Shown: positions 301 to 4,690, counted from the stretch's first letter. The stretch: DNA of 13,750 nt from Myxococcota bacterium (GCA_040752415.1 JBFMGU010000276.1:1-13750), one strand, 5' to 3'. Notes: generated from the letters alone by a model not told the origin. Numbers and translations are program-made.

Positions 301-789
301 TCACCTCCGGATGGCACCAAGCTCCAACAGCCGTCCCAGGATGAACAACGCGTGCAGCCGCACCAGCTGCGAGATCTGCACAATCTCCTCGAAGCTGGTC
401 TTCCCGTCGACGAGCGACATCAGGAACCCGGCGCGGTGGTCCAGCTTCAGGCGCATGAGCTGATCCGGGGTCATGGCCAGGGACGGTGCGCGCTCCAAGG
501 CGCCCACCTTCCACTCACACAGCTGCATCAACATTCGTTCGTTCACGCGCAGGTAGGACTCCGAGACCTGGCCCAGCGTCGGGTGGTCCCGGGTCTGCAG
601 CGCCTTTTCCAAGGCCAGCCAGTACTCGCCCCGCTCGTGCAGGGAGCGCAGTTCCAGCGCGTAGGCCACCACGTCGGAGCGCAGCAGCGCCACTGGCGTC
701 TCAACCCGACCGCTCCCGCCTCGCAGGGTGATGTCCAACGCTCGAGCCACGGCGCCTCCGCAGTCTGCCCAAGGACTGCATCGGCTCAT
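301..789 (-). CDS. Hypothetical protein with a C-terminal winged-helix-like domain; start uncertain (ATG 789, TTG 795 or further downstream)
   Basis: The C-terminus LDHRAGFLMSLVDGKTSFEEIVQISQLVRLHALFILGRLLELGAI matches a wHTH-like module I recall from myxobacterial hypothetical proteins. Confidence 0.7.
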   Translation of the reverse strand: MSRCSPWADCGGAVARALDITLRGGSGRVETPVALLRSDVVAYALELRSLHERGEYWLALEKALQTRDHPTLGQVSESYLRVNERMLMQLCEWKVGALERAPSLAMTPDQLMRLKLDHRAGFLMSLVDGKTSFEEIVQISQLVRLHALFILGRLLELGAIRR

Positions 790-918
790 GGGCAACGATC
801 CTGAAGGGGCCGGATCCGCGACGTGGTGTGGGACGTGATTGGGTGCGGCTCTTGGCTTCCTGCCAATGAGGATGGGAGCGGCTCTTCTGGAACGACGTTC
901 TTGTCTCCCGCCAATGAG

Positions 919-1255
919 ATTGGGTGCGGCTCTTTGAGACGACGGTCGACGTCACCGGCGGCTCAAGCCGCGTGCTGGAAAGGCACCAAGCCTGGCCTCG
1001 CAGCCCGTTGGCCCACTTGGCCGCGCCAGGCTCTGCGTTGGCGGCACAGGTAGCGTGGTTCGCAGAATCCAGGTTGTCGCAAGAGCTCGAGAAACCACGT
1101 CGCAATCTCAAGCCTCGCTTCTTGTGGCCGCCGAGGCAGAGCCTGGCGCGGTCCAGCGCGGCAGGTGTGCCACGAGGCCAGGCTTGGTGCCTTTCGAGCA
1201 TGCGGCTTGAGCCGCCGGTGACGTCGACCGTCGTTTCAAAAGAGCCGCACCCAAT
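919..1255. repeat. Hairpin A: long, near-perfect inverted repeat
   Basis: 919-1000 against 1173-1255 gives 79 Watson-Crick pairs, 2 G-T pairs, 1 mismatch and 1 bulge. A further perfect 16 bp stem at 1021-1036/1136-1151 extends imperfectly to 1060/1111. Confidence 0.95.
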
Positions 1256-1258
1256 GAG

Positions 1259-1440
1259 ATTGGCAGGGATCAGGAATGGGTTACGTCCTGCTCACCGCTG
1301 GCCGCGTCGCCGAGTCGCAGGACTGGCCCTCGAAGAATGACACGCTGCGGGGCGGCGTCTCGGCGCTTCCACAGTCAGTCCTGCGAGGTGCCTCCGACCG
1401 CCGAGCGGTTAGGACGTAAGCCGTTCTCTTGCCTGCCAAT
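1259..1440. repeat. Hairpin B: imperfect long inverted repeat
   Basis: Paired segments: ATTGGCAGG 1259-1267/1432-1440; GGAATGG-G-TTACGTCCT 1273-1289/1411-1427; ACCGCT 1294-1299/1404-1409; TCGCAGGACTGGC 1315-1327/1374-1386. Confidence 0.85.
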
Positions 1441-1555
1441 CTCATTGGCGGGAGACAACAGCGTCGCGCCAGGGAGGCGCACCCAATCCATCGGCGGGAA
1501 GCCAAGGCCTCGTTCCGGAACAGCCGCACCCCACGTGAATCTCGACGGTGTGCCG

Positions 1556-2725
1556 TCATCCAAGTGTCCCCGGAGGCGGTGTTGACGGCGGGACAATCAG
1601 CGGGGACGCGCGCGGCTCCGGCGCCGGCGTGATGTCCTCGGTGTACAGCTCCAACACCGCGAAGAAGAGACTGGCCAACACCGGTCCAATGAAAAGGCCG
1701 GGAAAGCCCATGAGGTACAGCCCGCCAAAGATGCTGATGATCGCCACCAGTGGGTGCTGTCGACTTCCGCCGCCAATGACCAGCGCACGGACGATGTTGT
1801 CGGCAATGCCCGCCACGCAGCCCGCGCCCACCACGAGCGCTGCCATGGCCAGCTTGGAATTGGCCACGAGGTAGATGGCCGCGCCGGCGGTGACGGGGAT
1901 GACGCCCACCAGCGGCAGCAACGACGCCACGAACTGCACGAACACCCACACCAACGCGCCCGGCACACCGGCCACCAGCAGCGCCACGCACATGATGAGG
2001 CTCTGCACGGTGGCAACGGCGAGACTGCCCATCAGCGTGGCCACGCACGTCTTGCGCAGCTCCGTCAGGACGCGCTGACTGCGAGTGGGATGGAACGGGC
2101 TCTGCCGGACGAACCAGTCCCGGAGGCGGGTCCAGTCGACGAGGAGGTAGTAGAGCGCGACGAGGAGGATGAAGAGGAAGATGATGGTCTCCGGCAGGTC
2201 CTGGAGCACCCCGCCGGCGGCCTGGCCCACCTTGGGACCGGCTTGTTGCAGCAGGCTGACCACCTGGTCGCGGAGGGTCTGCTGGTCCACCGGGGAGAGC
2301 CGGTCCACGAAACGCATCAGGCGGACCATCCAGGGGATGTCCTGCACGTAGCGCGTGATGTCCTCCGCGGCACGGAACCGGGCCTGCAGCTCCTCGACGC
2401 CACGGATGGCGGAGCGCACGCCCCCCACGACGAGCAACGTGATGGGCAGCAGCACTCCCAGCGTCACCAACGCGGTGGTGATGGCCGCGGCCACGCTCCG
2501 CCCCAGCCCGGTGCGCGCCATGAACCACGTGAAGAGCGGAAACGCCGCGGCGGCGAGGATGGCGCCGAGGAACACGGGAACCGTGAAGGGGCCGACGAGG
2601 ACGGCAAAGCCCACCGTCGTCAACGCCATCACCAGGTGCAGGCGCAGGCTGCGATGCGTTGGTGACGTTGCTGCTTGATCCACGAGCGCCCCGGGTGTCC
2701 CACCGGGGAATGGGTGGTGCAGCAA
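1556..2725 (-). CDS. AI-2E family (PerM/TqsA-like) transporter; start uncertain (TTG 2725 or downstream ATG at MALTT)
   Basis: About 360-390 aa with multiple hydrophobic segments. Family-typical motifs include ADNIVRALVIG and HPLVAIISIFGGLYLMGFPGLFIGPVLASL. Confidence 0.9.
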   Translation of the reverse strand: MLHHPFPGGTPGALVDQAATSPTHRSLRLHLVMALTTVGFAVLVGPFTVPVFLGAILAAAAFPLFTWFMARTGLGRSVAAAITTALVTLGVLLPITLLVVGGVRSAIRGVEELQARFRAAEDITRYVQDIPWMVRLMRFVDRLSPVDQQTLRDQVVSLLQQAGPKVGQAAGGVLQDLPETIIFLFILLVALYYLLVDWTRLRDWFVRQSPFHPTRSQRVLTELRKTCVATLMGSLAVATVQSLIMCVALLVAGVPGALVWVFVQFVASLLPLVGVIPVTAGAAIYLVANSKLAMAALVVGAGCVAGIADNIVRALVIGGGSRQHPLVAIISIFGGLYLMGFPGLFIGPVLASLFFAVLELYTEDITPAPEPRASPLIVPPSTPPPGTLG

Positions 2726-2740
2726 TGCGCACGCGTTCGA

Positions 2741-4690
2741 TCAGTCCAGTCCCAGCTTCCGCATCTCGCGCACCGCGCTGCTCATGGCGTCCATGTCCAG
2801 GATGAGGCCGTCCAGCATGGTGCCAAGGCGCGTGTTCTCCTCGGGCGTGGTGCCCACCAGGGAGAGGTTCAGCCGCGCCGCGCTCCGCCCCAGCGCGTCG
2901 ATGATTCCCTGCAGGCGGTCGGTGTTCTCCTGCAACATGGTCTGCACCGTCCGCGCGTCCTTGAGCAGCGCTTCCTTGCGCATCACCGCATCCGGTGCGG
3001 CCCCACGCTGCCGCAACCCCATCAGCTCCCGCTCGACGTGGACCGGTGGGAACTGCTTGAGGAACTGGCGACCGAAATGCAGCGCCGTGCACAGCTGCAC
3101 CAGTCGCCGGGCCGACTCCGCCACGCGCGGTCGCAGCATCTCGGCGAGCATGGGGTCGGCCACGCCCTGGCGGAGCATGTCATCCATCTGGTGCAGCAGC
3201 TCCAGGCCCTTGTTGCCCAGGCGAGCCGCGTCGGGGTCCTGCAGCAACGAGACCTGGTGACGCAGCTGCGCCATCTCGTCGGGGGCTTCCTGCGCCTGGG
3301 GCTTGCGCAACCATCCCTTGACCTTGCCCATCAGCCCGCCCACGACGGGCGCGGGTTCCTCCGTGGGTCGCTGCGAGGCGGTGGGCGCGTGCAACACCTG
3401 CTGCATCACCATGGGGCGTGAGGAGAAGTTGCGCTCATGCCAGCGTCGCATCTCGCAGCCGTCCAGGTGCGCGGCCAGCGTGGTCTCGTCGGAGAACGGC
3501 TCCCCGCAGAACTCGCAGCGGACGCCATGGTGACGCACCGGCTCATGCGCCAGCTCCAGGGATTCCTCGACGGGGGGCGCGGGCGGGAGGAACGCTTCCG
3601 CGGGCACTTCACGCGCGGGCCGGTGGGGGATGGCGCAGTACGGTCCGTGCGCCTCCAGCTCCTCGGGGGTGTCGAACGTGGCGCCGCACTGGGGACACAC
3701 GCTCACCGGCTGCAGCGGCTCCGACGGAGAAGCCTCCAGCAGCGCGCCCATCACCGGCGGCAGGGACCTGCCCGAGGTGCTGGTGGTGACCTCGACAGGA
3801 GCGGGGAGCACGGCGAGGGGCAGCTCCGGCTCGTCGGGGAGGGCCTGCCAAAGGGCATCCAGCGCCGTGGAGAGCGCCTCCGCGGTGGGAATGCGCTGGT
3901 CCACCTCCGGCACCAGGGCCTTGCGCAACAGGTCCGTCACCGCCTCGGGAAGTGCGCCCTCCTCGACGCGCCGCAGGTCATCCCCCCTGGTCACGCCCTT
4001 GAACATGCCGCGCATGTCCTTCTGCGCGCGCAGGTGCTGGCCGGTCAGCGCATGGAACAGCACCGCCCCCAGCGCAAACACGTCGGCGCGCGCGTCGGCT
4101 TCCCCGTCAAGGAGCTGCTCCGGCGCCATGTACCGGATGGTGCCCACCATCTGCCCCGTCAGGGTGAGGTCCTGGTCCTCCGCGAACCGGCACACGCCAA
4201 AGTCGACGACGACAACCCTGCCCGCGTTGTCGAACATGATGTTTTCCGGCTTGATGTCCCGGTGGATGACGCCCGCCGCGTGCGCCGCCTGCACGCCCAG
4301 CGCGGCCTCCTTCACCACGCGCACCGCCTGACGCGCGGGCAGCTTCTTGTGCGCGCTCACCAGCTGCTTGAGCGTCCCCCCGCCAAGGAGCTCCATGGCG
4401 TAGAAGCCCAGCGCGCGTCCGGCCCGGTCCTGTCCCCTTCCTGCGTCCAGCACGCGCACCACGTTGGGATGCTGGATGCGCCGCACGGACTGCACCTCCG
4501 CCACGAAGCGCGCGAAGGTCCGCTGGTCGTCGTCCCGCGTGAGGTCGGCGAGCAGGGTCTTGAGCGCCACCGCGGCGCCGGTCTCGTCGTGGATGGCCTC
4601 CCACACGGTGCCAAAGCCGCCGCGGCCGAGCTCGCGCACGAGCCGGTAGCCGGCCAGGGTCTGTCCCACGTCGATCAACAGGGTGGCCAT
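2741..4690 (-). CDS. Hanks-type Ser/Thr protein kinase with two CCHC zinc fingers and a C-terminal helical/coiled-coil region
   Basis: Kinase motifs GRGGFGTV, VALK, HRDIKPEN, DFG, YMAPE and DVFALG are present. Two C-x2-C-x12-H-x3-C motifs lie at 3635-3697 and 3455-3517. No obvious TM segment. Confidence 0.93.
   Translation of the reverse strand: MATLLIDVGQTLAGYRLVRELGRGGFGTVWEAIHDETGAAVALKTLLADLTRDDDQRTFARFVAEVQSVRRIQHPNVVRVLDAGRGQDRAGRALGFYAMELLGGGTLKQLVSAHKKLPARQAVRVVKEAALGVQAAHAAGVIHRDIKPENIMFDNAGRVVVVDFGVCRFAEDQDLTLTGQMVGTIRYMAPEQLLDGEADARADVFALGAVLFHALTGQHLRAQKDMRGMFKGVTRGDDLRRVEEGALPEAVTDLLRKALVPEVDQRIPTAEALSTALDALWQALPDEPELPLAVLPAPVEVTTSTSGRSLPPVMGALLEASPSEPLQPVSVCPQCGATFDTPEELEAHGPYCAIPHRPAREVPAEAFLPPAPPVEESLELAHEPVRHHGVRCEFCGEPFSDETTLAAHLDGCEMRRWHERNFSSRPMVMQQVLHAPTASQRPTEEPAPVVGGLMGKVKGWLRKPQAQEAPDEMAQLRHQVSLLQDPDAARLGNKGLELLHQMDDMLRQGVADPMLAEMLRPRVAESARRLVQLCTALHFGRQFLKQFPPVHVERELMGLRQRGAAPDAVMRKEALLKDARTVQTMLQENTDRLQGIIDALGRSAARLNLSLVGTTPEENTRLGTMLDGLILDMDAMSSAVREMRKLGLD

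Follow-up and report, generated by a model that had tools for sequence, protein, structure and literature searches.

A three-armed foldback in a Myxococcota genome is probably a pair of nested miniature transposons from a lineage-specific repeat family

The window analyzed here, meaning the whole stretch of 13,750 nucleotides from a Myxococcota bacterium (GCA_040752415.1, JBFMGU010000276.1:1-13750), is the entire contig C197 of a source assembly of 11.0 Mb, 68.9% GC and 520 contigs, from a genome that is 96.8% complete. Its subject is an intergenic foldback lying between a gene of 162 codons that starts next to it (301-789, minus strand; GC content at third codon positions [GC3], 0.86) and the stop of a gene for an AI-2E-family transporter (1556-2725, minus strand; Pfam score, 137.7 bits). 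A preliminary description of the sequence had placed a three-armed structure at 833-1536, in which an outer stem and two hairpins, A and B, meet at a junction built from three copies of a 13-nt quasi-palindrome, CCAAT-NNN-ATTGG. The three 13-mers are exact, M1 (911-923) and M2 (1251-1263) reading CCAATGAGATTGG and M3 (1436-1448) reading CCAATCTCATTGG. The arm pairings were recovered as inverted repeats as well, at 96% for 933-1000 with 1173-1240, 89% for 887-923 with 1436-1472, and 100% for 1251-1267 with 1432-1448. Folding of 820-1550 predicted the three arms on both strands. The plus strand as DNA gave -293.8 kcal/mol, compared with -162.7 ± 6.5 kcal/mol for 20 shuffled controls (z, -20.1), and z was -22.6 for the minus strand as DNA and -23.7 for the minus strand as RNA, again with 20 shuffles. 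In each of the three tests, 0 of 20 shuffles folded as well. The window encodes no transposase, as had been stated, and no Rfam family matched the region; a search of 600-1800 at E ≤ 1 gave two weak, chance-level matches, the better of which (MIR918) scored 27.6 bits against a gathering score of 268.

The observation itself is real. The sequence comparisons that follow do not support reading it as one novel structured element. The region is instead divided into an outer and an inner transposable element of the miniature inverted-repeat type (MITE), and the outer one, together with its target duplications, spans 834-1538, nearly identical to the bounds of 833-1536 given earlier. The features are as follows (rows without a strand have none assigned).

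834-838: CGTGA, left copy of the outer element's target-site duplication, directly before 839; the repeat matches at 5 of 5 positions
839-1533: outer MITE, with termini TTGGGTGCGGCTCT ... ACAGCCGCACCCCA; 695 nt with the nested element and 355 nt without it
839-910, plus strand: long inverted-repeat arm on the left, forming one half of the outer stem, with inverted and direct repeats
843-862: short S-type unit in the left arm
863-875: degenerate 13-mer CCAATGAGGATGG in the left arm
876-910: 35-nt S-type linker in the left arm
911-923, plus strand: M1, composed of CCAA (left part of the outer 13-mer), TGAGA (915-919) and TTGG (first 4 nt of the inner element)
920-1254: inner MITE, which is hairpin A, 335 nt, with termini TTGGGTGCGGCTCT ... 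AGAGCCGCACCCAA; TGAGA on both sides as a direct repeat, 5 of 5
953-1220: A-core, the long palindromic interior module of the inner element; 15 aligned copies
1251-1263, plus strand: M2, composed of CCAA (last 4 nt of the inner element), TGAGA (1255-1259) and TTGG (right part of the outer 13-mer)
1260-1439: hairpin B, forming the B core of the outer element; two arms, each with a second hairpin, GTCCTGC-N25-27-GCAGGAC
1285-1323 and 1378-1415: left and right second hairpins of the B core, the right one degenerate
1436-1448, minus strand: M3, inverted-repeat partner to the left 13-mer that the outer element originally had, 100% over 17 nt
1449-1533, minus strand: long inverted-repeat arm on the right, forming the other half of the outer stem, with inverted repeats
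1449-1482: S-type linker in the right arm
1483-1494: degenerate 13-mer CCAATCCATCGG in the right arm
1495-1533: S-type unit in the right arm
1534-1538: right copy of the target-site duplication CGTGA, directly after 1533

We consider it probable, at roughly 80%, that the foldback is two nested, nonautonomous transposons belonging to one superfamily. The outer element, whose ends can also be written TTGGGTGCGGCTC.../...GCCGCACCCCA and which is flanked by the 5-bp direct repeat CGTGA, came first in the proposed history, as an element with a B core and with arms of two S units plus the 13-mer that inserted at CGTGA between the two genes. A 335-nt A-core relative then entered the center of the left 13-mer, duplicating TGAGA and turning one 13-mer into M1 and M2; both steps are shown by the sequence. 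The right arm's partner 13-mer was left intact as M3. Given such a history of two insertions, a three-way junction that can re-pair arises automatically, and a host function is unnecessary for explaining the structure. The preliminary description had envisaged one ordered element with a designed, symmetric junction; there appear instead to be two insertions, each with its own 5-bp target duplication, and hairpin A, hairpin B and the outer-stem units are each found apart elsewhere in the genome. A BLAST search of the region against the source genome showed that every arm recurs separately, in line with the earlier suggestion of a MITE-like, dispersed, noncoding repeat that is acted on in trans. 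The related proposal of a REPIN- or MITE-like single-stranded DNA substrate fared unevenly, its MITE part standing and its single-stranded part being weakened by the target-site duplications. A large noncoding RNA is unlikely, given that the parts repeat independently of one another and that the two strands fold equally well.

The duplications were seen well beyond the window. In the source genome, 19 elements carry ...GGG[CT]GCGGCTC... at one end and its reverse complement at the other, and 5-nt direct repeats that differ by site flank the elements ending in NNGGG[CT]GCGGCTC... and its reverse complement. Termini like those of the outer MITE also bound elements of 277 to 287 nt at C401, C135, C171, C254 and C99. 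The set used for counting comprised elements for which both ends could be placed, with 10 in unique DNA, 5 in 13-mers and 4 with inverted 5-mers; C6 and C94, where runs of T blur the ends, C90, and chance pairs from a loose search were left out. Around the 10 elements in unique DNA, the flanking 5-mers agree at 44 of 50 positions, compared with 12 of 50 in a shifted control. Perfect duplications are found in the window (CGTGA) and at C401 (CCGAC), C135 (TGAAG), C480 (GCTCA) and C29 (CGCAA), and among the imperfect flanks four agree at 4 of 5 positions and one at 3 of 5. The 5 elements inserted at 13-mer centers duplicate the middle five bases of the 13-mer (24 of 25 positions, versus 8 of 25 in the shifted control), and the one at C317 repeats a variant word, TTTCA, which would be hard to explain except by duplication. 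Words that vary by site are as expected of real duplications, and variable 5-bp duplications point to a staggered-cut transposase in trans. Movement would presumably depend on an enzyme of the DDE type, and this transposase would prefer the family's own 13-mer, where each hit regenerates two targets. A first model, in which the units were cut 3' of CCAAT in the style of Y1 transposases, was dropped on finding the variable 5-bp direct repeats.

The 13-mer reads CCAA plus 5 nt plus TTGG, equivalent to a right end, a spacer of the length of the duplication, and a left end, and it sits within the long terminal inverted repeats (TIRs) of the family's commonest member. Exact copies number 99 in the source genome (52 and 47 in the two orientations), where 0.04 would be expected per orientation, and the loop is GAG or CTC in 99 of 111 CCAATNNNATTGG sites. 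Only 17 of the 140 sites with at most one mismatch fall in GC3-called coding DNA, compared with 135 of 200 two-mismatch sites, which are mostly chance, in a genome of which 78% is called coding. Within 300 nt of a contig end, which takes in 2.8% of the genome, lie 39 of the 140 sites, so the family breaks the assembly and the counts given here are minima. Where the B core comes after the 13-mer, the loop is GAG in 56 of 56 sites, as expected of inverted-repeat copies. Five exceptions to the loop orientation, with an S or Q linker after a 13-mer reading CTC, are consistent with insertions into oppositely oriented 13-mers, although they do not prove them. In 40 related genomes, the 13-mer occurred 0 or 1 time each. 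A 19-mer from the B arm, searched in sequence collections, found chance matches only, in 11 metagenome-contig and 5 viral-contig stretches, with none of the 16 extending beyond 23 nt and all being unrelated DNA low in GC. On these comparisons the family is lineage specific and new, and present only in the source genome among those searched. Tandem arrangements were also seen: the 49-nt S units form arrays at C11, C247 and C24, and C42:169-386 is an array of seven 13-mers of the variant TCAATCTCATTGG, six of them at a 24-nt period and each then followed by CGGGAACCAGC, with the seventh 44 nt further on, that adjoins a B arm at the contig end.

The interiors of the elements differ considerably, and element lengths range from 105 to 850 nt. 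Terminal 14-mers with at most one mismatch were found 147 times in 101 contigs, 86 of them with a family-type interior, some of these probably by chance. B-type ends bound 27 paired units, of which 25 are gene-less (172 to 208 nt), one is 502 nt long with another nested repeat, and one, of 624 nt, contains a Y1 transposase gene. The gene-less copies of hairpin B form subfamilies at 94 to 99% identity, and the second hairpin pattern gave 146 matches over both strands, or about 73 sites. Searching with GTCCTGCTCACC at up to one mismatch was too permissive (495 matches versus 68 exact, mostly chance), and mostly chance matches came also from the A-core-end 15-mer at up to two mismatches and from two loose end patterns. 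Among 82 B arms, most have a 36-nt S-type linker on the outside, starting G[CT]GCGGCTC. The partner arms of one B copy share an identity of 0.76, against a background of 0.75, whereas the best match of an arm among the other copies is 0.92 on average and 0.99 at most. B copies thus behave as elements whose left and right ends are distinct and whose subfamilies are recent, and not as co-evolving doublets. The B copy in the window is diverged, at no more than 0.87 identity to any other arm. In one subfamily of B (subfamily 1; C6:26423-26800, C94:16299-16650 and C505), B is itself nested inside further inverted ends, GAGTGTGGCTCTCATCCTGACGCC..., in a composite that is present at 3 or 4 sites and that at C94 is flanked by the direct repeat TTTCGTT.

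Hairpin A is represented by 3 copies at 91 to 95% identity, the inner MITE having its relatives at C357 (95%) and C29 (91%). At C357, hairpin A lies within outer S arms without B (93.7% identity over 399 nt), in a composite flanked by CGGAA and CAGAA, and the equivalent composite at C29 has CGCAA on both sides. The A-core is a module of its own, with 12 of the 15 aligned copies having other outer arms. It has a stem of about 90 bp, in which 96.2% of the cells over 92 stem pairs and 15 copies are paired. Both sides have changed in 36 of the 92 pairs, compared with 19.8 ± 2.2 in shuffles and 3 to 10 in slid controls, in a set of copies amounting to only three or four subfamilies and hence few independent covariation events. 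In the same alignment (loci L021-L034), a manual count gave about 54 G.T wobble and about 27 A.C mismatch cells, which are not independent of one another; the excess of G.T may hint that one strand is the folded one. A third abundant interior with the same termini holds the word CCGGCAATGGTCAGCC, its 16-mer having a merged count of 94, and was located at the following positions, in the first of which a 630-nt stretch is 86% self-complementary.

C42:18034-18645: third interior type
C479:1398-2180: third interior type
C71:186-1035: third interior type
C317:4805-5525: third interior type

A Y1 gene, the only gene found between B-type ends (1 of the 27 paired units), is also the only gene tied to the family. 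A search of the source genome with Y1_Tnp gave two genes, on C24 and C12, the two proteins being 39% identical. The single-copy C24 gene, which occupies C24:5888-6292 and encodes 134 amino acids, lies between two inverted arms, each of which starts with the 13-mer and runs through the second hairpin, and these flanks are B-type inverted repeats (24 nt at 100%, 54 nt at 80%). The preliminary description had proposed looking for copies beside genes of the Y1 (HUH) type, and this gene, with the same 13-mer and hairpin-B arms on its flanks, is such a case. A B-type MITE copy with S arms has inserted in the left 13-mer of the unit, directly upstream of the gene. The C24 protein scores 59.2 bits on Pfam Y1_Tnp, 51.7 bits on the NCBIfam IS200 model (cutoff, 55) and 25.4 bits on the RAYT model (NCBIfam REP_Tyr_transpos; cutoff, 80). 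Its best solved relative is IS608 TnpA (2a6m), with which the HUH motif and the tyrosine align, and both Y1 proteins carry the signature Y-x3-Q-x2-HH (RYVESQRTHH and RYIRNQRSHH). We infer that the B core derives from the unit encoding this transposase, hairpin B being a gene-less copy of it, such that the commonest element would carry Y1-type hairpin ends as cargo.

Relatives of the protein at 41 to 42% identity are encoded in two metagenome-assembled genomes (MAGs) titled Sandaracinaceae and Deltaproteobacteria, with the same layout on each side of the gene, namely a terminal hairpin, a spacer and a second hairpin. Those flank hairpins have roughly 10 to 15 occurrences per genome. In the Y1 flanks of two other MAGs, a heptamer, CA[AG][TC]GAG, stands right after the terminal hairpin and resembles CAATGAG in the source 13-mer, in the regions below.

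L013:1378-1450 and 1898-1970: heptamer CA[AG][TC]GAG
L014:1392-1460 and 1925-1991: heptamer CA[AG][TC]GAG

The second Y1 gene in the source genome lies at a contig edge (C12:1-1877), and after it come a pair of direct repeats, each about 105 nt long and containing two GC hairpins; a second abundant family tied to it was rejected, its direct repeats being on only 3 contigs. On one side of the C24 unit and its MITE (C24:4400-7732), the adjoining reading frame resembles, by eye, the flagellar hook protein FlgE, and across from it the frames resemble FlbD and MotA.

The flanks of the C24 gene bring to mind a different origin for the foldback, in which a system of the repetitive extragenic palindrome (REP) and REP-associated tyrosine transposase (RAYT) type would use the 13-mer hairpins and B arms as single-stranded substrates, cut and rejoined by the C24 protein, and the cluster would have grown by Y1-mediated, REPIN-like insertion. 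The protein matches Y1_Tnp and retains the HUH motif and the tyrosine in alignment with IS608 TnpA, the single-copy gene with the 13-mer and B arms on both sides and a MITE copy upstream has a REPtron-like arrangement, and JGI has named two homologues RayT. We nevertheless regard this as unlikely. The elements have variable 5-bp target duplications, the arms of a B copy do not co-evolve (being as alike as background, with their best matches in other copies), most of the 82 arms have an outward S-type linker and hence lie inside TIR elements, the RAYT-model score is below its cutoff, and the GTAG foot is absent at the hairpins. We see only a slim chance that the IS200-like protein, alone or with a host function, moves the superfamily, a proposal suggested by its being the only gene between family ends, by the lack of a DDE partner found in a 96.8%-complete genome, and by a preferred target, the 13-mer, that has the look of a right and a left end brought together around a 5-nt spacer. 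In that case a Y1 enzyme would leave 5-bp target duplications and regenerate its own landing site. To our knowledge, such transposition has not been described for HUH transposases, and we know of no target duplications in IS200/IS605 or REP/RAYT systems.

It is very improbable that the fold is a structured RNA or DNA signal used by the host, selected as a transcript-end or stabilizing structure between codirectional genes or as a large noncoding RNA. The RNA fold is extremely stable on the strand of the flanking genes (z, -23.7), it is located between the stop of one gene and the start of the next, and REPs and bacterial interspersed mosaic elements (BIMEs) are reported to affect mRNA stability and termination (PMC2817692 and PMC3733652). 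However, the fold is as good on one strand as on the other, every arm recurs as a dispersed repeat in unrelated contexts, the junction is accounted for by the insertion history, and the best Rfam match, at 27.6 bits versus 268, does not reach its threshold. The double changes that keep the A-core stem (36 of 92 pairs) would fit a selected structure, but covariation in a palindromic mobile element can come from transposition constraints. That a short-read assembler misjoined dispersed repeat copies at this locus can hardly be credited, even with 39 of the 140 13-mer sites close to contig ends and a 95%-identical copy of hairpin A elsewhere, since matching 5-bp duplications at both the outer and the inner ends are not expected from a chimera, the B copy is effectively unique (at most 0.87 identity to any arm), and unique coding DNA lies on both sides of the foldback inside one 13.7-kb contig.

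Several observations weigh against two nested MITEs moved in trans. No autonomous element with the family ends TTGGGYGCGGCTC... was found in the 520-contig assembly. The searches with transposase family models covered Y1_Tnp, Tn3-type and rve only; a Tn3-type transposase (PF01526) was not found in the source genome, and the single rve gene (C518) was rejected as the autonomous partner, its ends being unrelated, with 4 motif matches against 3.9 expected. Where family ends are long spaced or unpaired, they border host genes. A pair of ends at C508 encloses a gene for a VWA-domain host protein, and genes of the histidine-kinase, TPR, peptidoglycan-binding and TonB-receptor kinds adjoin three copies with one end only, so that neither the pair nor the one-ended copies were retained as autonomous candidates. 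Repeated insertion sequence (IS) copies often fail to assemble. The set for the duplication count was picked by hand, and the flanks of one element in unique DNA agree at only 3 of 5 positions. Four elements (the inner one at C357 and those at C42, C479 and C71) have inverted 5-mers, TGAGA and TCTCA, and not direct ones, and the 13-mers at these four lie within longer inverted repeats of unexplained origin. Finally, the outer element of the window has a degenerate right terminus, agreeing with the left at 13 of 15 positions by manual count; the termini of the inner element are near perfect.

In bacteria, MITEs are known to occur nested, and palindromic repeats are known as targets of both IS elements and MITEs. 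Elements of the present family resemble bacterial MITEs in being short and noncoding, with TIRs and a target duplication of fixed length, and in having many dispersed, extragenic copies, varied interiors under one pair of ends, and insertion of copies into copies. Of the usual marks of a MITE, TIRs at both ends, a fixed 5-bp duplication, small size without a transposase gene, and many copies were all found, and a cognate autonomous element with the same ends was not found in the draft assembly. Unlike such MITEs, the family has as its apparent preferred target a 13-mer in its own arms, which mimics abutted ends and is doubled per hit, and the core of its commonest member appears to be a gene-less copy of a Y1-transposase unit. 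Tn3-derived miniature elements (TIMEs) have a 5-bp duplication, GGGG-tipped ends of 38 bp, and a Tn3-family transposase in the host. The family is like them in its 5-bp duplication and in its mosaic, nonautonomous elements sharing one end pair, and unlike them in that its termini start with NNGGG and not GGGG and PF01526 was not found. With IS200/IS605 insertion sequences it shares a TnpA Y1 protein having the HUH motif and tyrosine; the two Y1 genes are, however, present in one copy each, not as several near-identical copies, and the flanks are inverted repeats.

The closest published parallels involve Y1 genes embedded in repeats. In REPtron and REPIN-RAYT systems (PMC3116915 and PMC5581495), a single-copy Y1 gene is likewise flanked by the abundant extragenic palindromes of its genome, with gene-less, hairpin-forming doublets, clusters that arise by insertion into existing copies, and repeats that are lineage specific. 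PMC3116915 reports that REPINs inserting into or beside one another form clusters, and also reports arrays longer than 700 bp and compensatory changes in REPIN hairpins. The source protein differs in being IS200-like and not a class 2 RAYT, with YVESQ as its tyrosine motif in place of Y-x3-NP; the GT[AG]G foot is missing beside the 13-mer and the second hairpin, the two arms within a doublet resemble each other no more than arms drawn at random, and the spreading elements have 5-bp duplications. TIRtrons, as presented in the main text of PMC3733652 (Di Nocera et al. 2013), are Y1 genes lying between long inverted repeats, which themselves make up repeat families. The source unit is similar to TIRtrons, with a Y1 gene in long TIRs of a moderately abundant family having dimers and clusters; the GGGGWSAS motif given there was not seen by eye in the source arms that were read. 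The words "target site," "duplication," "direct repeat" and "TSD" are absent from that main text. Subclass 1.2 of TnpAY1 is characterized in the relevant section of PMC6006769 (Quentin et al. 2018) by the signature Y-x3-Q-x2-HH, and its members are low in copy number, close to IS200 without being IS-like, mostly from Cyanobacteria and Bacteroidetes, and generally without terminal hairpins. Both source proteins have this signature and low copy number, an assignment made by motif alone. The source gene is unlike those described there in its two-hairpin inverted flanks, which recur about 80 times, the relevant sections of the paper describing no repeat family for the subclass. Literature searches turned up no paper that links RAYTs to myxobacteria, and the papers returned on repetitive extragenic palindromes in Myxococcota-type bacteria looked unrelated by title and abstract. 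The supplements of the papers compared here may list further taxa.

Around the foldback, synteny or an empty site was unusable, the neighboring 162-amino-acid protein matching only parts, at 29 to 37% identity, of much longer frames in the three nearest genomes (G001-G003). Further along the window, 2741-4690 on the minus strand encodes a Ser/Thr protein kinase (Pkinase, 161 bits) that has weak C2H2 zinc-finger matches as well, at residues 331-348.

If the foldback is two nested MITEs, a three-way junction of about 700 nt needs no function of its own and can be read base by base as two insertion events, which is a caution for scans that flag large, ordered folds. An insertion target that lies inside the family's own arms and is doubled with each hit would account for arrays and for multi-arm pile-ups. 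At least three interiors, unrelated to one another, share a single pair of ends, and the core of the commonest member would come from the Y1-transposase unit of a barely characterized enzyme class. The family breaks the 11-Mb assembly at dozens of places, and knowing it should aid in finishing and annotating such genomes.

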